Source: a virus
Taxonomy: Duplodnaviria; Heunggongvirae; Uroviricota; Caudoviricetes
DNA length: 8,472 nt
Direction: 5' to 3' (one strand)
IMG/VR virus record: IMGVR_UViG_2711768073_000015
Shown here one piece after another: positions 1 through 8,472 of the stretch. How positions within the stretch are numbered: position 1 is the first letter of the stretch; the number at the start of each line of letters is the position of its first letter. The position numbers were made by a program, and so were the translations under genes. Below the pieces are notes generated by a model. The model saw nothing but the letters and a program-made list of their open reading frames with translations, made no database searches and was not told where the DNA came from.

Positions 1-669
1 TTCCTGAATGGCAATATCGCGGGTGTGGGACACAATGGTGTCGATTTCTTCCGGATGAGCAAAGACCATCATATGCCAGTGCACGGTGCCGTCATGGTGA
101 GGCTCCACCGTGCGGATGCCATACCAGCGCAGGCCGTCGCGGTTCAGTTTCTTGCGGACCGCCGCAAAAAACGTGTTAACCAGGTAATCGCTGGAGTCGC
201 GCATGGTGGCCCCGTTCCATTTGGGGTTCGGATGACCGTTCTCCGTTGTTGCGTGGTATTTTGACGGGCAGGTGACAGTCAGAAACACCGCTCTGTCGCC
301 ACGGGCTTCGGCCAGAAGTTCCAGTCCCTTCATGGTGGCCATCATTTCTGCCTTACGGTGAACCGGGTTACTTACTCCCGCGTAATACACTGTCTCGAGA
401 TCAATCGTGAACCCGTCTTCATTTTCCAGCATGAAACTTTTCAGGAAATCGCGTGTTTTCTCGCGCTGTGCGCGAAACTCGCTTAACGCGTCCTGGCTCA
501 GATAGGGTGATGTTTTTCTGGAAACCAGACAGGCGGCGCGGAGTTGTTCTTCTCTCCACTCGCAACGTAACAGCCACAGTTTGCGTTTCCACCATTCCGC
601 ACAGGTCAGGCGAAGGATTGCGCCCGGCAGCAGCTCCGTGTCCGGTTCATTCCTCCGGTCTTTGTCTGT
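1..669. repeat. Direct repeat copy X1 of the gene A core segment (partner 1426..2094; offset 1425 bp)
   Basis: 1..669 aligns to 1426..2094 with a handful of substitutions and no indels (for example 25 matches 1450 and 453 matches 1878 in the ORF track). Homology may continue left of the window edge. Confidence 0.9.
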
Positions 670-2832
670 ATCAACGCCGTCAGGGAGCTGCGGCCACGGT
701 GCTGGCCGTTCTTCCGGCTGTTCTGTCCCGTTGTTGTCCGTTTCCTGTACACGGGGACAGTTATTGCCACGAGTCCAAGGGGCGGCAGGGCCGCCCTGAA
801 GGTCAAAACCATTTTCGCGGGTGCTGTCTTCCGCTTCCGGTTTGCGTCTTACCAGCTTCCAGTTATCCGGATGCGTGCACACACGGGAGGATTCCCCGAT
901 GAGTGGTGACCAGATCCCATAAATCTGTACGCTCTGTTCGCCGTAATCGTTCAGCTCTTCTGCGAGGTCGTAGGCGGTGCGAATCAGGTAGTCTTTGCGT
1001 GGAACAAGCACGCCACCCTGTTTTTCAATGTAGGTGGCAAAACACCCGGCATCAGCGGCAGCGAGTACCGCATCCATTGCGTCATCCTTCAGCCGTTGCG
1101 GGCCTTCCGGGTTGCGTGCCATCTGGCTGGCAAGGCGGCGTAGTTCACGCCACACCTGACGGGAGGGGATGCCAAAGAACTGGAACTGGCGGACCCGGTG
1201 AAGGCGCGCCCAGCCGATGGCGCGCTCCACGCTCTCGGCCATTGATTTTCCGGTTTCGTGGTCAACGCGTGGCTTGCCCGTTTTCGGGTCGATACCATCC
1301 ACGGCGCGGCTGTCCAGGTTCTTTCCGATGTAGGTGGCGATGTAGCTGGTTGGCGTGCCTTTTGAGCCGTCGACATACTCCACCTTAAAGCGCGGAGTAA
1401 TATCATTGCCCAGCTCGTGGCGGTCTTCCTGAATGGCAATATCGCGGGTGTGGGACACAATGGTGTCGATTTCTTCCGGATGAGCAAAGACCATCATATG
1501 CCAGTGCACGGTGCCGTCATGGTGAGGCTCCACCGTGCGGATGCCATACCAGCGCAGGCCGTCGCGGTTCAGTTTCTTGCGGACCGCCGCAAAAAACGTG
1601 TTAACCAGGTAATCGCTGGAGTCGCGCATGGTGGCCCCGTTCCATTTGGGATTCGGATGACCGTTCTCTGTTGTGGCGTGGTATTTTGACGGGCAGGTGA
1701 CAGTCAGAAACACCGCTCTGTCGCCACGGGCTTCGGCCAGAAGTTCCAGCCCCTTCATGGTGGCCATCATTTCTGCCTTACGGTGAATCGGGTTACTTAC
1801 TCCCGCGTAATACACTGTCTCGAGATCAATCGTGAACCCGTCTTCGTTTTCCAGCATGAAACTTTTCAGGAAATCGCGTGTTTTCTCGCGCTGTGCGCGA
1901 AACTCGCTTAACGCGTCCTGGCTCAGATAGGGTGATGTTTTTCTGGAAACCAGACAGGCGGCGCGGAGTTGTTCTTCTCTCCACTCGCAACGTAACAGCC
2001 ACAGTTTGCGTTTCCACCATTCCGCACAGGTCAGGCGAAGGATTGCGCCCGGCAGCAGCTCCGTGTCCGGTTCATTCCTCCGGTCTTTGTCTGTTGTCAG
2101 AGCGTCATAATGTGGAGGCATAGCGTGCAGGTGTAACGCCATGCGGGCCAGCATCTGATACGCCTTCAGCGTTACATCCATGGTCAGCTCGCCATCGGTC
2201 GCGCCAAAGCCATCGCAGAGTTTTTCAAAAGTGCCACTGAACATCGCCGCCGTCATGGTGGCCAGCGTCTGTATCTGGTGTTTGTTGAGCTGCGGCAGGT
2301 AAAGCAAATCGTCCAGGCGTTCGCGTCCGGCAAGGGAGCGATAGCCCGGTGTCAGCCAGCGGCTGTCGGTGCGGTCCAGACGTTCGAATATTTTGCGCAG
2401 GGTTCCGCGCGCGTAGCGTTCAGCCTGCCAGCTCTTTTTGCCTTTCTGACGATCGGCTTCCTGCTTCTTGCGCAGAAAAGAGAGGTGGCGGCTCAGAGGT
2501 TCACGCAGATAAACGGGAAGCACCTTCAGTGTGGCAAAAGCACGGGCCACCGGGTCTTGTTCTGTTGCCTGACGCTTGCTGATGATGCTTTGTGCCAGCT
2601 TTTCACGCTGTCCGGCTTCCTCAAGGGATGCCATGAGTTTTTTACCCACGGTGGATTGTGCGAAAAAGGCTTCTTCCTTCGCTTCCTGTTCTTCCTGTGC
2701 CCTTTTGTTTGCCTCAAGGTAGTAACGGATGGCGCGTTGCAGGTCGGTTTCAGTTTCCTGCCTGCGCTCCGTAAATCTGGCCGGATCAATGGCTGGCCGT
2801 GGTTCATTCCAGCTCCATGCAAACGCACTCAT
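1..2832 (-). CDS. A: Replication initiation endonuclease, P2 gpA family (HUH rolling-circle initiator); partial, runs off the window at its 3' end; contains an in-frame internal repeat
   Basis: Minus-strand frame (codons at 3k+1..3k+3) is open from ATG 2832..2830 to the window edge in every segment I hand-translated (1..420 and 1321..1440); 421..1320 and 1441..2830 were not fully hand-translated, so that stretch is inferred. The ORF track omits it, presumably because no stop lies inside the window. Translation shows TSPYLSQDALSEFRAQREKTRDFLKSFMLENEDG, the HUH motif GIRTVEPHHDGTVHWHMMVF (encoded at 1486..1545 and again at 61..120) and paired tyrosines SYIATYIGK (1321..1347), matching the motif order I recall for P2 protein A. 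Confidence 0.85.
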   Translation of the reverse strand, partial: MSAFAWSWNEPRPAIDPARFTERRQETETDLQRAIRYYLEANKRAQEEQEAKEEAFFAQSTVGKKLMASLEEAGQREKLAQSIISKRQATEQDPVARAFATLKVLPVYLREPLSRHLSFLRKKQEADRQKGKKSWQAERYARGTLRKIFERLDRTDSRWLTPGYRSLAGRERLDDLLYLPQLNKHQIQTLATMTAAMFSGTFEKLCDGFGATDGELTMDVTLKAYQMLARMALHLHAMPPHYDALTTDKDRRNEPDTELLPGAILRLTCAEWWKRKLWLLRCEWREEQLRAACLVSRKTSPYLSQDALSEFRAQREKTRDFLKSFMLENEDGFTIDLETVYYAGVSNPIHRKAEMMATMKGLELLAEARGDRAVFLTVTCPSKYHATTENGHPNPKWNGATMRDSSDYLVNTFFAAVRKKLNRDGLRWYGIRTVEPHHDGTVHWHMMVFAHPEEIDTIVSHTRDIAIQEDRHELGNDITPRFKVEYVDGSKGTPTSYIATYIGKNLDSRAVDGIDPKTGKPRVDHETGKSMAESVERAIGWARLHRVRQFQFFGIPSRQVWRELRRLASQMARNPEGPQRLKDDAMDAVLAAADAGCFATYIEKQGGVLVPRKDYLIRTAYDLAEELNDYGEQSVQIYGIWSPLIGESSRVCTHPDNWKLVRRKPEAEDSTRENGFDLQGGPAAPWTRGNNCPRVQETDNNGTEQPEERPAPWPQLPDGVDTDKDRRNEPDTELLPGAILRLTCAEWWKRKLWLLRCEWREEQLRAACLVSRKTSPYLSQDALSEFRAQREKTRDFLKSFMLENEDGFTIDLETVYYAGVSNPVHRKAEMMATMKGLELLAEARGDRAVFLTVTCPSKYHATTENGHPNPKWNGATMRDSSDYLVNTFFAAVRKKLNRDGLRWYGIRTVEPHHDGTVHWHMMVFAHPEEIDTIVSHTRDIAIQE
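1426..2094. repeat. Direct repeat copy X2 (partner 1..669)
   Basis: Same alignment. Identity ends at 2094/2095, where the two copies continue into different sequence (670.. versus 2095..). Confidence 0.9.
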
Positions 2833-2921
2833 GGCTGGTATCCCGTCACGCGCTGCCACTCCTGTGAGAAGAGGGCGGAAAGGCGGTTAAATTCAGCGGA
2901 GTATTCAATCAGCGAGGCACA
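1799..2921. repeat. Tandem duplication unit, copy 1 (1123 bp)
   Basis: 1799..2921 aligns to 2922..4044 at a constant offset of 1123 with scattered substitutions (for example g2825 versus t3948). The two copies abut directly, head to tail. Confidence 0.9.
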
Positions 2922-3955
2922 ACTCCCGCGTAATACACTGTCTCGAGATCAATCGTGAACCCGTCTTCATTTTCCAGCATGAAACTTTTCAGGAAATCGC
3001 GTGTTTTCTCGCGCTGTGCGCGAAACTCGCTTAACGCGTCCTGGCTCAGATAGGGTGATGTTTTTCTGGAAACCAGACAGGCGGCGCGGAGTTGTTCTTC
3101 TCTCCACTCGCAACGTAACAGCCACAGTTTGCGTTTCCACCATTCCGCACAGGTCAGGCGAAGGATTGCGCCCGGCAGCAGCTCCGTGTCCGGTTCGTTC
3201 CTCCGGTCTTTGTCTGTTGTCAGTGCGTCATAATGTGGAGGCATGGCGTGCAGGTGTAACGCCATGCGGGCCAGCATCTGATACGCCTTCAGCGTTACAT
3301 CCATGGTCAGTTCGCCATCAGTCGCGCCAAAGCCATCGCAGAGTTTTTCGAAGGTGCTGCTGAACATCGCCGCCGTCATGGTGGCCAGCGTCTGTATCTG
3401 GTGTTTGTTGAGCTGCGGCAGGTAAAGCAAATCGTCCAGGCGTTCGCGTCCGGCAAGGGAGCGATAGCCCGGTGTCAGCCAGCGGCTGTCGGTGCGGTCC
3501 AGACGTTCGAATATTTTGCGCAGGGTTCCGCGCGCGTAGCGTTCAGCCTGCCAGCTCTTTTTGCCTTTCTGACGATCGGCTTCCTGCTTCTTGCGCAGAA
3601 AAGAGAGGTGGCGGCTCAGAGGTTCACGCAGATAAACGGGAAGCACCTTCAGTGTGGCAAAAGCACGGGCCACCGGGTCTTGTTCTGTTGCCTGACGCTT
3701 GCTGATGATGCTTTGTGCCAGCTTTTCACGCTGTCCGGCTTCCTCAAGGGATGCCATGAGTTTTTTACCCACGGTGGATTGTGCGAAAAAGGCTTCCTCC
3801 TTCGCTTCCTGTTCTTCCAGAGCCTTTTTGTCTGCCTCAAGGTAGTAACGGATGGCGCGTTGCAGGTCGGTTTCAGTTTCCTGCCTGTGCTCCGTAAATC
3901 TGGCCGGATCAATGGCTGGTCGTGGTTCATTCCAGCTCCATGCAAACTCACTCAT
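2909..3955 (-). pseudogene. Truncated 5' duplicate of replication gene A (348 codons; lacks HUH and Tyr core)
   Basis: ATG at 3955..3953 overlaps the TGA of the upstream ORF (ATGA). Translation MSEFAWSWNEPRPAID... is near-identical to the N-terminus of the copy starting at 2832. The frame breaks 13 nt after the duplication junction (2921/2922) at TGA 2911..2909 because the 1123-bp unit is not a multiple of 3. The ORF track lists it from a GTG at 3982. Confidence 0.6.
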
Positions 3956-4044
3956 GGCTGGTATCCCGTCACGCGCTGCCACTCCTGCAAGAAGATGGTG
4001 GAAAGGCGGTTAAATTCAGCGGTGTATTCACTCAGCGAGGCACA
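2922..4044. repeat. Tandem duplication unit, copy 2 (1123 bp)
   Basis: As above. The segment 2922..3217 is a third copy of 374..669 and 1799..2094. Confidence 0.9.
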
Positions 4045-6331: not shown

Positions 6332-6643
6332 ATGTCAAGTGGGTACGAAAAAAAACTGAAAGAGATACGGAAAAGTGAAGGGTTAACTCAAGCTGAGTTT
6401 GCTGATGTTACTGGGATAAATCTCGGAACTATAAAGAATTATGAGAGCGGTAAAAGAGAGGTTGGTTTAAGCGTTGTTGATCGCGTAATTAATTCTAAGG
6501 ATTTCGAAAAATACACTATATGGCTTATGACGGGAAAAACAAATGAGGCTGCTGGGCAGATCAGTCCCTCTCTCTCCCCTGATGGGCCAGAAAACACATC
6601 GTCTTCTCAAAAGCCCCGCAAGACTGGTACACAGCCCGGCTAA
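6332..6643 (+). CDS. C: Immunity repressor, P2 C-like (helix-turn-helix)
   Basis: ORF track (103 aa). The segments LTQAEFADVTGINLGTIKNYESGKRE and FEKYTIWLMTGKTNEAAGQISPSLSPDG closely parallel the P2 C repressor as I recall it. Positioned immediately upstream of int on the same strand, as in P2. Confidence 0.8.
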   Translation: MSSGYEKKLKEIRKSEGLTQAEFADVTGINLGTIKNYESGKREVGLSVVDRVINSKDFEKYTIWLMTGKTNEAAGQISPSLSPDGPENTSSSQKPRKTGTQPG

Positions 6644-6692
6644 TCATGGAACGCTGGGGGCATGGTGGTCTTGTAACGCTGGGGTTTCACGA

Positions 6693-7670
6693 ATGAGCAT
6701 AAAATCAATTCCGGGAGGGTATCTTCTTGACATGCGCCCTGAGGGGCGTAAAGGCAAACGCATTCGCAAAAAATTTAAAACGAAATCGGATGCAGTTTTA
6801 TATGAGCGGTGGGTGCTGGCGCAACAGCATAACAATGAGTGGAAAGGAAACTCTATTGATCGCCGTCCTCTGTCAGTGCTTATTGACTTGTGGTGGAAAT
6901 ACCACGGCCAGCTAATGAAGTCAGGGCATAACACGCGCCTTAAATTGCTGCGCTTGAGTGAAGCAATGGATGACCCGTGCGTGCATAAACTTAATACAAC
7001 GATGCTCACCGAGCTACGTGTGTCCAGGATAGAGCAGGGGATACAGCCCAGCACCATAAATCGAGAGATTGGGGCGTTAAGCGCGATGTTTACCGCACTC
7101 ATCTCATCCGGCCATTTTCTTAACGATAACCCCGTTCAAGGCCTTAAAGGAATGAAGGTTAACGAGCGCGAAATGGGATATCTGAGTAAGTCTGAATGTG
7201 TTCAGTTGCTGGATGCACTGGCTGAAAATCCCGATGAACGACTGGCTGTCGAAATCCTTCTGTCGACCGGGGCGCGATGGGGCGAGGTAGCGGCACTGGA
7301 GCAGCGCCGTGTTCTTCATTGTCGAATCACTTTTTCAAAAACGAAGAACAGCAAAAACCGTACCGTTCCTATTTCTGAAAGCCTGTTTGAAAAGATCAAA
7401 AAACGGGGCGGGAAACTGGTGTTTCCGACGCTGGATTATTCATTGGTTCGCGATGTCATCAAAACGGTCGCACCTGATGTTCCTGACGGCCAGGCTGTTC
7501 ATGCGCTGCGCCACACCTTCGCCAGTCATTTCATGATGAACGGCGGCAATATTCTGACGCTCCAGAAAATTCTGGGGCACGCAAAGATTCAGACAACGAT
7601 GATTTATGCCCATCTTGCGCCGGATTACCTGCAGGATGCGGTGAGGTTTAATCCACTAGGAGGTGCTTAA
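6693..7670 (+). CDS. int: Tyrosine recombinase / phage integrase (325 aa), P2 Int-like
   Basis: ORF track frame 6543..7670. I place the start at ATG 6693 (MSIKSIPGGYLLDMRPEGRKGKRIRKKF...) because the 6543 start would overlap the repressor gene. C-terminal catalytic signature HALRHTFASHFMMNGGNILTLQKILGHAKIQTTMIYAHL (HxxR ... Y). Stop TAA at 7668..7670. Confidence 0.9.
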   Translation: MSIKSIPGGYLLDMRPEGRKGKRIRKKFKTKSDAVLYERWVLAQQHNNEWKGNSIDRRPLSVLIDLWWKYHGQLMKSGHNTRLKLLRLSEAMDDPCVHKLNTTMLTELRVSRIEQGIQPSTINREIGALSAMFTALISSGHFLNDNPVQGLKGMKVNEREMGYLSKSECVQLLDALAENPDERLAVEILLSTGARWGEVAALEQRRVLHCRITFSKTKNSKNRTVPISESLFEKIKKRGGKLVFPTLDYSLVRDVIKTVAPDVPDGQAVHALRHTFASHFMMNGGNILTLQKILGHAKIQTTMIYAHLAPDYLQDAVRFNPLGGA

Positions 7671-7672
7671 GA

Positions 7673-8035
7673 GTGAAGTTTCATTTAGATGAACTTAAAA
7701 GAATGGCAACGCTCGATAATTTTGCGCGTTTTCTCAATGAGTCGTCTACGAATGAAAAATGTTTGTCGTGTGGCGATACGGATATGTACATGTATTTGAC
7801 GAATATTGTTGAGGTGGGGCCTGAGCCGAAAACTGCTGAGGAGTGTGATTTAGGCACTTTTGTTATGCTTGATTACATCGGTCCATTTACTGGGTATCCG
7901 GGATATGAGGGACATGATCGGGAAAATATCCATAACTATGAATTCCGACTTACCTGTAACAGATGTGGGTTTGTTCATCGTTACTCGGCCCGGGCCTTTA
8001 TGAACTGGGTAGGCAAGCAGGGTGATGAGAAGTGA
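7673..8035 (+). CDS. Hypothetical protein with two CxxC pairs (putative zinc-binding), 120 aa; translationally coupled to int
   Basis: GTG start at 7673, 2 nt after the int stop, with AGGAGG at 7658..7663 (9-nt spacer) inside the int 3' end. Motifs CLSCGD and CNRCGF. Stop TGA 8033..8035. Confidence 0.6.
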   Translation: MKFHLDELKRMATLDNFARFLNESSTNEKCLSCGDTDMYMYLTNIVEVGPEPKTAEECDLGTFVMLDYIGPFTGYPGYEGHDRENIHNYEFRLTCNRCGFVHRYSARAFMNWVGKQGDEK

Positions 8036-8472
8036 TGGCAGAGAATGTTGCACATATTTCGCGGTTCAGAAAAAAGAAAGAGAATGCCTATAATGTATCC
8101 AACAACCAAGTAACAGGAAGTGGTAATGATGGAGGTGATGGCATGAATGACGACCTTGAACGGCGGGTCAGTTGCCTGGAAAGTGATGTGACTGAAATCA
8201 AAAACAACCTGATTACTCTCACCACAAGAAGCGAATCCTTTGCTACCAAATCTGATGTACTGGAGATTCGCGAAGGGTTGAGGCTTGAGATGGCAGAATC
8301 GCGCCAATCCCTGAAGTCTGAGATGGCTGATTTACGCCAGTCTCTGAAAGTTGAGATGGCTGAGCATCGTACTGAACTTCAGAAATCATTTGCAAATCAG
8401 ACTTGGTTACTCACAGGTATTGTCCTGTCTGCGATGGCCGTGCTTGTGGCTGTGGTTACTGTTATTAAGTAA
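8035..8472 (+). CDS. Tail-anchored coiled-coil membrane protein (C-terminal TM helix); start ambiguous (8035 or 8143)
   Basis: ATG 8035 overlaps the upstream TGA (TGATG). An alternative ATG at 8143 has a strong GGAGGTG at 8131..8137 with a 5-nt spacer. Three 11-residue repeats EMAESRQSLKS / EMADLRQSLKV / EMAEHRTELQK precede a hydrophobic C-terminus WLLTGIVLSAMAVLVAVVTVIK (about 8404..8469). Stop TAA 8470..8472 is the last codon of the window. Confidence 0.65.
   Translation: MAENVAHISRFRKKKENAYNVSNNQVTGSGNDGGDGMNDDLERRVSCLESDVTEIKNNLITLTTRSESFATKSDVLEIREGLRLEMAESRQSLKSEMADLRQSLKVEMAEHRTELQKSFANQTWLLTGIVLSAMAVLVAVVTVIK
8287..8385 (+). repeat. Three imperfect 33-bp tandem coding repeats
   Basis: gagatggcagaatcgcgccaatccctgaagtct / gagatggctgatttacgccagtctctgaaagtt / gagatggctgagcatcgtactgaacttcagaaa, encoding the 11-residue coiled-coil repeats of the last gene. 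Confidence 0.8.

Follow-up and report, generated by a model that had tools for sequence, protein, structure and literature searches.

What does a small, repeat-containing membrane protein do at the very end of a viral sequence? The question is raised by the last gene of the window, which here means the whole stretch of 8,472 nucleotides from a tailed phage (Caudoviricetes; IMG/VR record IMGVR_UViG_2711768073_000015) that was analysed. An original prediction had described its product as a tail-anchored coiled coil built from 33-bp tandem repeats, likened it to XhlA and DUF1640 proteins and proposed it as a candidate membrane-disrupting effector. We show here that the open reading frame 8035-8472 is a real and conserved prophage gene. 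Its 145-aa product is 100% identical to WP_000829983.1 of E. coli SE11 and matches phrog_9415 (E 1.3e-42). Of 5426 complete E. coli genomes, 86 carry the window allele, and divergent alleles of the cassette that the gene forms with its upstream neighbour occur in further E. coli strains as well as in Salmonella, Klebsiella and Citrobacter. In the following the 145-aa product is called the anchor protein and the product of the neighbouring gene its partner; the features of both are collected in Table 1.

Table 1. Coordinates of the anchor gene, its parts and its operon neighbours within the window.
Feature	Position	Strand	Description
Upstream genes, same operon	6332..7670	+	C-type HTH repressor 6332-6643; tyrosine integrase about 6693-7670; from Pfam and PHROG matches and SE11 annotation
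Partner gene, 120 aa	7673..8035	+	Four-Cys zinc-ribbon signature CLSCG ... CNRCG
145-aa tail-anchored coiled-coil gene, long form	8035..8472	+	Stop codon included; ATG 8035, TAA 8470-8472
Codons 1-36	8035..8142	+	Variable N-terminal peptide (ISRFRKKK...) and Gly/Asn/Asp-rich flexible linker
Weak candidate sigma-70 promoter	8065..8094	+	TTCAGA, 18 nt, TATAAT; within the N-terminal extension; could drive a short-isoform transcript only
Internal start region	8131..8145	+	GGAGG 8131-8135, 7-nt spacer, ATG 8143-8145 (Met-37); candidate start of a 109-aa product
Four-heptad coiled coil, aa 38-68	8146..8238	+	Core L41, V45, L48, V52, I55, L59, L62, S66
Putative beta-layer motif FATKSD, aa 69-74	8239..8256	+	Nonad register
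Whole stalk, aa 75-122	8257-8400	+	Contains the three hendecad repeats
Three 11-residue (33-bp) repeats, aa 85-117	8287..8385	+	EMAESRQSLKS, EMADLRQSLKV, EMAEHRTELQK
C-terminal transmembrane anchor, aa 123-144	8401..8466	+	K145 is the sole residue beyond

The anchor protein is ordered into a disordered peptide with a Gly linker, heptads, the FATKSD motif, a hendecad stalk and a transmembrane anchor. Much of this had been anticipated. The 33-bp tandem repeats with three hendecad-like units are borne out by Tandem Repeats Finder, which finds 2.4 copies of a 33-bp unit at 8285-8363 (81% matches, score 98), and by the three tandem units in codon register, which agree in 45 of 66 comparisons, a value reached by none of 2000 codon shuffles (maximum 33). 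Near-identical alleles carry 1, 2, 3 or 4 copies of the repeat, and remote relatives have up to at least 7. The description as a tail-anchored coiled coil with a low-complexity N-terminus likewise held up. Hydrophobic residues recur with a period of 3.55 at aa 38-68, which corresponds to heptads, and of 3.65-3.7 at aa 72-122, which corresponds to hendecads, and the top 19-residue Kyte-Doolittle window (2.65) lies at aa 126-144. In the AlphaFold2 model a helix at residues 37-69 (pLDDT about 90) is followed by a second one at 72-144 that passes unbroken through the transmembrane segment, while the low-complexity residues 1-36 are predicted to be disordered (pLDDT <50). The helix is interrupted precisely at residues 70-71, inside FATKSD. 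This motif fits the published beta-layer consensus [aliphatic]-A-T-K-[polar]-[DE], which follows the rule a-b-c-beta1-3-e-f-g and is trimer-specific (Hartmann et al., 2016; PMC4786415), with every position of the nonad register in place (S66 a, E67 b, S68 c, F69-A70-T71 beta1-3, K72 e, S73 f, D74 g, V75 a), except that a Phe stands where the consensus has an aliphatic residue. R65, S66, E67, K72 and D74 are invariant in our alignment of homologues (A1; segment RSEsFATKsD). From the motif we infer that FATKSD forms a beta-layer, and because beta-layers are known almost only in homotrimers, the anchor protein is probably a homotrimer.

The gene is accompanied by its partner throughout. In all lineages examined a homologous partner gene lies immediately upstream of the anchor gene (pairwise E 1e-6 to 1e-16); in two Salmonella lineages (L037 and L038) it is intact, though uncalled in the annotation. 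The partner matches phrog_4293 (E 3.4e-30), and its residues F17, L21, C30, C33, G34, C95, C98, G99 and W112 are invariant. The TGA of its reading frame shares 1 nt with ATG 8035, upstream of which GTG 8032 offers an alternative in-frame start, and this arrangement of stop and start suggests that the partner gene is translationally coupled to the anchor gene. The predicted structure of the partner has low confidence (pLDDT 65), and a Foldseek search of the PDB returned no fold match for it (best E 0.57). When compared by tblastn with 50,697 phage records, the partner hit only four Klebsiella records and the anchor protein had no match.

Judged by gene order, the anchor gene is the last one in the lysogenic operon C-int-partner-anchor of a P2-like prophage. 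The att core begins 125 nt beyond its stop codon: a 25-bp direct repeat, GGCCGCTCTGCGGCCTTTTTTCTTT, is found 126-150 nt past the stop, and a second copy adjoins ihfA, where the prophage ends on the other side. A transcript from Pc through the whole operon is predicted to stop at a hairpin in the att core (12999-13013 of SE11 L001). The anchor gene is followed by att and btuC, and the late genes lie on the opposite side of the prophage. Within lysogeny operons the pair occurs in several gene orders, namely C-int-partner-anchor in seven lineages (L027, L028, L031, L033, L035, L037 and L041), cI-partner-anchor-int in L024 and cI-FlkN-x-partner-anchor-int in L023 and L025. The int-att slot varies in content: L040, L041 and phage 186 have other alleles there or cargo that is unrelated, and E. 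coli O104:H4 has an unrelated 131-aa gene. The anchor gene thus has the properties of a cargo gene ('moron'), in that the prophage containing it is bounded by att repeats and that its slot, which separates int from att, is filled differently in related phages. Since some of these have unrelated cargo there, the cassette is dispensable for lysogeny itself. The P2 int-att region has been described as a minor defence hotspot and holds only 3% of the known P2 defence systems (PMC13586616); as evidence for defence, the location in the cargo slot is weak. The lysogenic-operon context, the coupled upstream partner and the FATKSD beta-layer had all been absent from the original prediction.

Databases are split over the start codon of the anchor gene, giving either 145 or 109 aa, and the 109-aa form (P0015) is annotated on at least 1000 contigs. 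Codon comparisons indicate that the N-terminal extension is translated and under purifying selection (dN/dS about 0.2): the ratio for codons 1-36 is 0.22 between the window and Salmonella L037 and 0.15 between L025 and L024, and third-position changes dominate. In every lineage examined the long-form start abuts or overlaps the stop codon of the partner. The character of the N-terminal peptide varies sharply among alleles and can be basic, as in the window allele (RFRKKK), acidic or hydrophobic; a short hydrophobic motif recurs in these unrelated N-termini (ISRF, ILPF, VSNLRDFP, DVPLDFP, VSYLADYP). The peptide type switches together with the partner type between alleles whose C-terminal 109 aa are still 73-82% identical, a co-variation that could also arise simply because the two lie side by side and recombination breaks within the Gly linker. 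The ribosome binding site at 8131-8137, which had been taken to permit a 109-aa product, reads GGAGGTG, with 7 nt between its GGAGG and ATG 8143, and such a product is possible. Met-37 is invariant among the homologues in alignment A1, and GGR-GG or GGAG is found 4-8 nt 5' of its ATG in 10 of 10 lineages, compared with 37% for GGA plus GGG in background Gly codons, although Gly-Gly coding alone could yield an SD-like sequence and the 10 lineages are not fully independent. Because Met-37 and the SD-like GGRGG are conserved family-wide, two isoforms of 145 and 109 aa from one gene are plausible. A candidate promoter inside the extension (10/12 consensus matches, TATAAT at 8089-8094) was downgraded, as its TATAAT is kept in type-A alleles only and shuffled sequence readily contains equally good sites (3.8 per 2.6 kb).

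It might be argued that the 109-aa product from ATG 8143 is the only one made and that the 36 upstream codons are an open but untranslated leader, the 145-aa reading being an artefact. This would agree with the strong SD sequence at ideal spacing before ATG 8143, with the weak SD-like sequence before ATG 8035 and with the many pipelines, including RefSeq for other alleles, that annotate the short form. We regard it as very unlikely, since the upstream frame is open in all lineages (n at least 12) despite sequence turnover and always starts at the stop of the partner, its dN/dS is 0.15-0.22, and the hydrophobic motif recurs in N-termini that are otherwise unrelated.

What, then, is the function of the pair? 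Scans of the anchor protein and the partner against Pfam, NCBIfam and PADLOC profiles gave only sub-threshold coiled-coil, zinc-ribbon or chance matches. Within PADLOC-DB v2 the matches were at chance level only (LmuB, E 0.0075, 12.9 bits; Cas12a, E 0.03), with no known defence component among them, and no holin, haemolysin or toxin family was matched in the profile scans. Rfam found nothing within the window, and a pattern scan of genome contigs gave no confirmed locus. A Foldseek search of the PDB with the AlphaFold2 model of the anchor protein was uninformative, the model being a single long helix. No paper mentioning either protein was found in a full-text literature search by protein accessions and PHROG identifiers, and no experiment or database entry ties the pair to a phenotype.

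We propose that the anchor protein is a tail-anchored, trimeric membrane scaffold to which the partner docks, with a probable role in prophage exclusion or defence, and we give this explanation as a whole an even chance of being correct. The protein would insert tail-first into the inner membrane, leaving its bulk in the cytoplasm, and the trimer would form a rod about 12 nm long at the cytoplasmic side of this membrane, each repeat changing its length by about 1.6 nm. The long isoform would be produced through translational coupling to the partner, and its flexible N-terminal peptides, displayed at the tip of the rod, would serve for docking, most probably of the partner with which the isoform is co-translated. 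The 109-aa isoform could co-assemble and would then set the count of peptide-bearing chains per trimer. Anchored in this way, the rod may act as a scaffold or tether, not as a pore, in the exclusion of or the defence against other phages. A membrane scaffold, possibly for phage exclusion, and not a haemolysin, is suggested because the protein is always paired with a zinc-ribbon protein in an operon expressed in lysogeny, and an exclusion or defence role seems most likely from the presumed expression in lysogens and the variable int-att cargo slot. More tentatively, the partner and the beta-layer stalk might together constitute a previously undescribed two-gene system of prophage immunity or exclusion in P2/186-like and some other temperate phages, a possibility that we consider less likely than not. 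In such a system, docking peptides specific to each allele would be displayed by a membrane-tethered trimeric rod whose length can be adjusted, the dual start would tune the number of these peptides, and a rapidly exchanging interface between peptide and partner would determine specificity.

These proposals have to be weighed against other functions of a small membrane protein. For the membrane-disrupting effector of the original prediction we found no evidence, and a free-acting membrane toxin is argued against because the gene sits with repressor and integrase in an operon that maintains lysogeny. A related idea is a toxin or abortive-infection effector that permeabilises the inner membrane once the zinc-ribbon partner is removed or a phage triggers it. 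The layout resembles that of type II toxin-antitoxin systems, the stop codon of a small first gene overlapping the start of the second; partner and anchor gene are strictly co-conserved, the anchor protein is small and crosses the membrane once, and the slot is one where defence genes occur. However, a single transmembrane helix with one residue beyond it, preceded by a conserved rod of about 120 residues with a precise beta-layer, is scaffold-like, and the holin, haemolysin and toxin families remained without matches. In addition, the short form initiated at the strong internal SD would lack the peptide and be independent of the partner, which is hard to square with neutralisation through the peptide; we therefore consider such an effector unlikely. 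That the protein assists lysis in the manner of XhlA or a holin is extremely improbable. Size and layout are superficially similar and 2 of 147 remote homologues match XhlA weakly (about 9e-5), but the window protein gave no match to the XhlA profile PF10779 at E<=1, and its gene lies outside a lysis cassette, in a lysogenic operon situated opposite the late genes in the prophage, where expression in lysogens would be incompatible with lysis. The haemolysin part of the original prediction is hence abandoned.

Rather unlikely, in our judgement, is a factor in lysogeny or host physiology that has no role in defence. In that case some protein of the phage or the host would be tethered to the membrane, or sequestered there, by the rod; candidates would include regulators of induction, excision or integration and, on the host side, factors of the envelope or the ribosome. 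ElaB and YqjD, which are tail-anchored ribosome binders, provide an analogy for such a function. A second one is MCUR1, described as a scaffold factor (PMC7519068), and co-transcription with repressor and integrase in several gene orders as well as the basic N-terminus of the window allele point in the same direction. The radically different N-terminal peptides, however, are more in keeping with an arms race, or with a private partner that co-evolves with them, than with a host target that is conserved, and the presence of unrelated cargo in the same slot of related phages also speaks against such a factor. The partner-docked membrane scaffold with a role in exclusion or defence is the reading that we prefer. 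If the cassette excludes other phages, it would represent a new small system of prophage immunity; if it does not, it would still be a tractable model for the DUF1640 class of scaffolds. Either way, the locus would offer a compact natural example of a membrane-anchored beta-layer coiled coil, a stalk whose length steps by 11 residues between otherwise identical alleles, and possibly a dual-start gene outside lysis cassettes. It places a head-less, phage-borne branch of DUF1640 type in a clear and thus testable genetic setting, characterised by predicted co-expression with a repressor, an obligate partner and a cargo or defence slot.

To our knowledge, no function has been assigned to the bacterial DUF1640-type proteins. 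Members of the DUF1640/CCDC90-like family (PF07798; MCUR1, CCDC90B and prokaryotic homologues) have been described as membrane proteins in which a beta-layer starts the C-terminal stalk (PMC4786415), and MCUR1 is its characterised eukaryotic member. By sequence, the anchor protein is a distant relative of DUF1640/MCUR1, and its own relatives grade into DUF1640/CCDC90-like proteins. PF07798 scores the 145-aa protein at 10.9 bits (E 0.42, profile positions 47-125 of 175), below the gathering threshold of 33.5 bits, so that it falls outside formal membership. As the match begins at profile position 47, the head domain is lacking; no folded head is predicted in aa 1-36, and ahead of the beta-layer the chain consists of plain coiled-coil heptads. 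Among close homologues 9 of 19 match PF07798, all under the threshold (best E 4e-4). Remote homologues, taken as phmmer representatives, match in 98 of 147 cases at E<=1e-3 (best 5.7e-18), although repetitive coiled-coil composition inflates these scores and the Apolipoprotein family also matches 90 of the 147. One protein of the same architecture that is 38% identical to the window protein (P0055; BLASTP E 2e-20) passes the threshold with 33.9 bits, and P0058 reaches 40 bits. The resemblance to DUF1640 that had been predicted therefore stands for beta-layer, stalk, anchor and relatives, and fails for the family threshold and the head. Both share an ATK-type beta-layer followed by a coiled-coil stalk with hendecad-like EMAxLRxELKx repeats and a C-terminal membrane anchor, whereas the window protein has a disordered peptide, a Gly linker and four extra heptads in place of the head, is phage-borne, is always paired with a zinc-ribbon protein and has a conserved internal start.

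Alpha/beta coiled coils such as Thermosinus Tcar0761 and the stalks of DUF3782 endonucleases (PMC4786415) likewise have a beta-layer that is flanked by a coiled-coil segment on either side and keeps the nonad register exactly. In contrast to these, the window protein is membrane-anchored, has Phe at beta1 and contains a single beta-layer and not a poly-nonad fibre; Citrobacter alleles have two beta-layers. A profile search of the PDB gave weak matches only (E 0.019-0.5), including the engineered beta-layer structures 7o92 and 5apt, which are a lead and not a proof because they are engineered beta-layer/GCN4 constructs and the matches are partly driven by the GCN4 adaptors. With XhlA (PF10779) the anchor protein shares small size, a coiled coil and one C-terminal transmembrane helix, but there is no detectable sequence relationship, and XhlA belongs to a lysis cassette while the anchor gene is part of a lysogenic operon. 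The lambda holin and antiholin, S105 and S107, are membrane proteins made from two in-frame starts of one gene and able to co-oligomerise. The candidate isoforms described here would likewise come from in-frame dual starts and differ at the N-terminus, however by 36 residues instead of 2, outside a lysis cassette and without a match to a holin family. A parallel in genome organisation is found in phage 186. Its Orf69 differs from the anchor protein in being soluble, in having LAPDGTYVGG-like repeats and in lacking any sequence relationship to it, yet the operon pL-cI-int-Orf69-terminator-attP has the same gene order, with Orf69 in the same last position.

The window covers a P2-like prophage's early and lysogeny region. 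Across 6521-8472 it matches E. coli SE11 with 99.9% identity, and with 100% over the 873 bases 7600-8472; the SE11 annotation labels both small genes hypothetical proteins (WP_000668483.1, WP_000829983.1), with btuC 208 bp downstream of them. A perfect 25-bp direct repeat, GGCCGCTCTGCGGCCTTTTTTCTTT, is found 126-150 nt past the stop codon of the gene for the 145-aa tail-anchored coiled-coil protein (the anchor protein), with a second copy at the opposite prophage end, adjoining ihfA. This repeat is the att core, and hence the anchor gene is the last gene inside the prophage. The same sequence forms a terminator-like GC hairpin followed by a T-run, and this hairpin probably also terminates the lysogenic operon. 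The genes for C, Int (end 7670), the 120-aa four-cysteine zinc-ribbon protein (the partner; start 7673) and the anchor protein form a close-packed co-directional array, in which the A of the anchor gene's ATG is common to the TGA stop of ORF 7673-8035 (1-nt overlap); an in-frame GTG (8032) precedes that ATG by one codon. The layout recurs in phage 186 (pL, cI, int, Orf69, lysogenic-operon terminator, attP), where Orf69 is a repeat protein unrelated to the anchor protein. Orf69 (L039 1658-1909, in the phage 186 locus) consists of about eight LAPDGTYVGG-like repeats and occupies the slot of the lysogenic operon equivalent to that of the anchor gene.

Features of the window, of the anchor protein and of the SE11 prophage ends
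Feature	Position	Strand	Detail
gpA (replication endonuclease), DUF4754, DUF4761, Cox-like gene	window	-	
C-type HTH repressor, tyrosine integrase, 120-aa ORF, 145-aa ORF	window	+	
Anchor protein ORF	ATG 8035 to TAA 8470-8472	+	145 aa
SD-like GGAGGTG	8131-8137	+	internal ATG at 8143
Three 11-residue units, codon register	aa 85-117		EMAESRQSLKS, EMADLRQSLKV, EMAEHRTELQK
Heptads before beta-layer motif			L41(d), V45(a), L48(d), V52(a), I55(d), L59(a), L62(d), S66(a)
Helix restart after motif			V75(a), I78(d), L82(a)
GGCCGCTCTGCGGCCTTTTTTCTTT copies in E. coli SE11	L001 12999-13023; L042 about 12509-12533		just downstream of ihfA

According to a 2026 survey covering thousands of P2-like prophages (PMC13586616), the int-att interval is a minor defence hotspot, with 3% of the P2 systems. 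The window allele turns up in 86 of 5426 complete E. coli genomes, each time as a single chromosomal copy. Among other genomes whose integrase is related, SCU-176 has a divergent form of the pair and O104:H4 a cargo unrelated to it, a 131-aa protein without transmembrane helix. A separate candidate defence locus exists in the SE11 prophage, where three hypothetical genes (458, 114 and 263 aa; L001 2817-5324) fill the classic P2 defence hotspot from gpQ (portal) to gpA. The minus-strand gpA region of the window (1-4044) contains partial tandem duplications (1-669 against 1426-2094, 99.1% match; 1799-2921 against 2922-4044, 97.9% match, 1123-bp unit). The A gene of SE11 is single-copy (2766 bp), and the gpA ORF of the window is shortened to 357 aa (2909-3982); the duplications may be a real, replication-inactivating rearrangement or an assembly artefact.

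The predicted anatomy of the anchor protein, with its repeats, transmembrane helix, low-complexity N-terminus and internal GGAGGTG and ATG, was confirmed on all points. Tandem Repeats Finder detects a repeat of 33-bp period (8285-8363; 2.4 copies, 81% matches, score 98). Across three tandem 33-nt copies 45 of 66 positions agree, a count that exceeded 33 in none of 2000 codon shuffles of the ORF. The last 22 residues are strongly hydrophobic (best 19-residue Kyte-Doolittle window 2.65, aa 126-144), leaving K145 as the sole residue after the transmembrane segment. Hydrophobic periodicity is 3.55 in aa 38-68, indicating heptads, and 3.65-3.7 in aa 72-122, indicating hendecads. AlphaFold2, run on a 19-sequence close-family alignment, gives a mean pLDDT of 74. 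In the model, residues 1-36 are disordered (pLDDT <50) and are followed by two helices, 37-69 and 72-144, with a two-residue break (70-71) between them; the second helix continues into the membrane segment.

In that alignment, invariant positions other than Met-37 concentrate in R65, S66, E67, K72 and D74. The segment F69-A70-T71-K72-S73-D74 fits the beta-layer consensus [aliphatic]-A-T-K-[polar]-[DE], its register agrees with the a-b-c-beta1-beta2-beta3-e-f-g rule (PMC4786415), and the helix break of the model coincides with beta2 and beta3. Beta-layers occur in homotrimers, the sole exception being the pseudo-trimeric SLH domain (PMC4786415), and we therefore infer that the anchor protein is a trimer. 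Repeat number differs between otherwise identical or near-identical alleles, with one hendecad in allele P0038, two in P0009 and P0032, three in the window and four in P0033; remote relatives have up to at least seven. Each hendecad adds three helical turns, about 16 Å if every residue contributes the standard rise of 1.5 Å, and keeps the register.

The original prediction allowed for two isoforms, of 145 aa and of 109 aa from the internal ATG. The long form is real: its 36-codon extension is translated, with a dN/dS of 0.22 between the window and a Salmonella allele (dS about 1) and of 0.15 between two Citrobacter-type alleles, resembling the remainder of the gene, and its frame is open and coupled to the partner stop in all lineages. 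A short hydrophobic motif (ISRF, ILPF, VSNLRDFP, DVPLDFP, VSYLADYP) recurs in N-termini that are unrelated in other respects. The SD of the long form itself is weak, so that its synthesis is probably coupled to translation of the partner. The short form is plausible: Met-37 is invariant in the 19-sequence alignment, and in 10 of 10 lineages a glycine codon, GGA or GGG, with GG after it (in one lineage GA, giving GGAG) lies 4-8 nt before the Met-37 codon. As 37% of the remaining glycine codons of these genes are GGA or GGG, the chance of such a conserved SD-like codon is ~0.003 if about six lineages are independent, which is suggestive, not conclusive. Public annotation is inconsistent: some records give the product 145 or 146 aa, and many others start it at the internal Met (109 aa); the 109-aa call P0015 occurs on at least 1000 contigs, and RefSeq uses the long start in SE11 and the short one in SCU-176 and the Klebsiella element.

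A partner homologue lies directly upstream of the anchor gene in every lineage for which DNA was obtained, namely several E. coli alleles, Salmonella (two types), Citrobacter farmeri, a Klebsiella P2-like element, one metagenomic contig, two IMG/VR contigs and the non-P2-like Klebsiella phage ST101-KPC2phi6.1. An apparent loss in two Salmonella loci (L037, L038) proved wrong, the gene being intact and merely uncalled. Partner stop and long-form start are either immediately adjacent or overlapping, by 1, 4 or 8 nt. The partners (117-166 aa) share 20-30% pairwise identity (E 1e-6 to 1e-16) and keep F17, L21, C30-x2-C33-G34, C95-x2-C98-G99 and W112 invariant; profile searches assign the partner to no family beyond weak zinc-ribbon matches, and the AlphaFold2 model of the partner (pLDDT 65) is without fold match. 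Gene order is cI-partner-anchor-int in L024 and cI-FlkN-x-partner-anchor-int in the Citrobacter-type 186-like prophages L023 and L025; lying between repressor and integrase, the pair is firmly part of the lysogenic transcription unit. In the latter two (L023 4119-5204, L025 4606-5631), the C-terminal ~20 residues of the cI-like repressor, SINVSGQGNRVAGRDFHESKK, are similar to the N-terminal ~20, MTVNSAGEHNRAAGRDFNENK, of the protein encoded next, a second tail-anchored protein of 209 aa with a Flk_N domain (PF27202). ST101-KPC2phi6.1 (MK448231), a 48-kb temperate phage, carries a miniature cassette upstream of its tape-measure gene (L032 3884-4535), with a 119-aa partner and an anchor protein of about 100 aa that has a poly-Gly linker and a 70-aa short form. 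Its presence in such a phage indicates that the pair moves between phage types.

The junction of the two genes is also where alleles differ. Locus L019 equals the window over about 870 nt save for a 45-nt patch (window 8023-8066; L019 5989-6030) with 15 substitutions and a 3-nt indel, spanning the last codons of the partner and the first ten of the anchor protein. Both patch types occur on more diverged backgrounds too, which suggests short-tract recombination or balancing selection at this interface. Where the partner is of a different type (161-166 aa), the N-terminal peptide is unrelated and the C-terminal 109 aa are 73-82% identical, marking the Gly linker as a module boundary; peptide and partner travel together.

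Without a signal peptide and with one residue past the transmembrane helix, the anchor protein would be tail-anchored in the inner membrane with its bulk in the cytoplasm. As a trimer it would build an alpha/beta coiled-coil rod about 12 nm long, whose flexible N-terminal peptides at the tip could be docking sites for the co-translated zinc-ribbon protein or for a target recognised by it; the short isoform may thin out peptide-bearing chains in mixed trimers. Co-expression with the repressor, dispensable cargo, allele turnover focused on the interface of peptide and partner, and a slot used by defence genes lead us to rank exclusion of, or defence against, other phages first, as a tentative choice that is nonetheless the likeliest single role. 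A tethering function outside defence ranks second, and a toxin restrained by the partner third. The protein had been proposed as a membrane-disrupting effector; nothing supports direct membrane disruption, nor a role in lysis. The anchor protein is not mentioned in the literature searched or in the defence database, and the pair may be a new small prophage immunity cassette.

A likeness to XhlA, also proposed, found no match in the profile search, and that to DUF1640 (PF07798) holds in part. The close homologues make up 45 clusters, nearly all from Enterobacteriaceae. A full scan of 1.84 billion cluster representatives gave 288 clusters at E<=1e-3, which split into two architectural classes. 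The proteobacterial class has a variable N-terminal peptide, Gly-rich linker, nearly invariant Met, LE+RV..LE.DV..I+..L..L..RSE.FATK.D, a varying number of EMAxLRGELKx 11-residue units, QT motif and transmembrane helix; the second, which from composition we take to be putatively actinobacterial, has a different helical N-terminal region, LATKxDL, EMAELRGELRx repeats and transmembrane helix. PF07798 is matched by 98 of 147 scanned representatives at E<=1e-3 (best E 5.7e-18), and P0055, which has the window protein's architecture with more repeats (38% identical, E 2e-20), barely clears the cut-off. Since repetitive coiled coils raise profile scores and the Apolipoprotein family matches 90 of the same 147, we treat the anchor protein as continuous in sequence with DUF1640, without membership. 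It scores 10.9 bits against a Pfam cut-off of 33.5, and its match begins at profile position 47, past the head domain, so that it falls short in both threshold and head. The anchor protein opens the function of bacterial DUF1640-like proteins to experiment. It resembles the 'neck-stalk-anchor' part of DUF1640/MCUR1-type proteins, to which sequence links it, and has a peptide as tip where that family has a head. This tip is an addition undescribed for the DUF1640 family, as are its location in a phage, the zinc-ribbon protein that always accompanies it and the conservation of an internal start.
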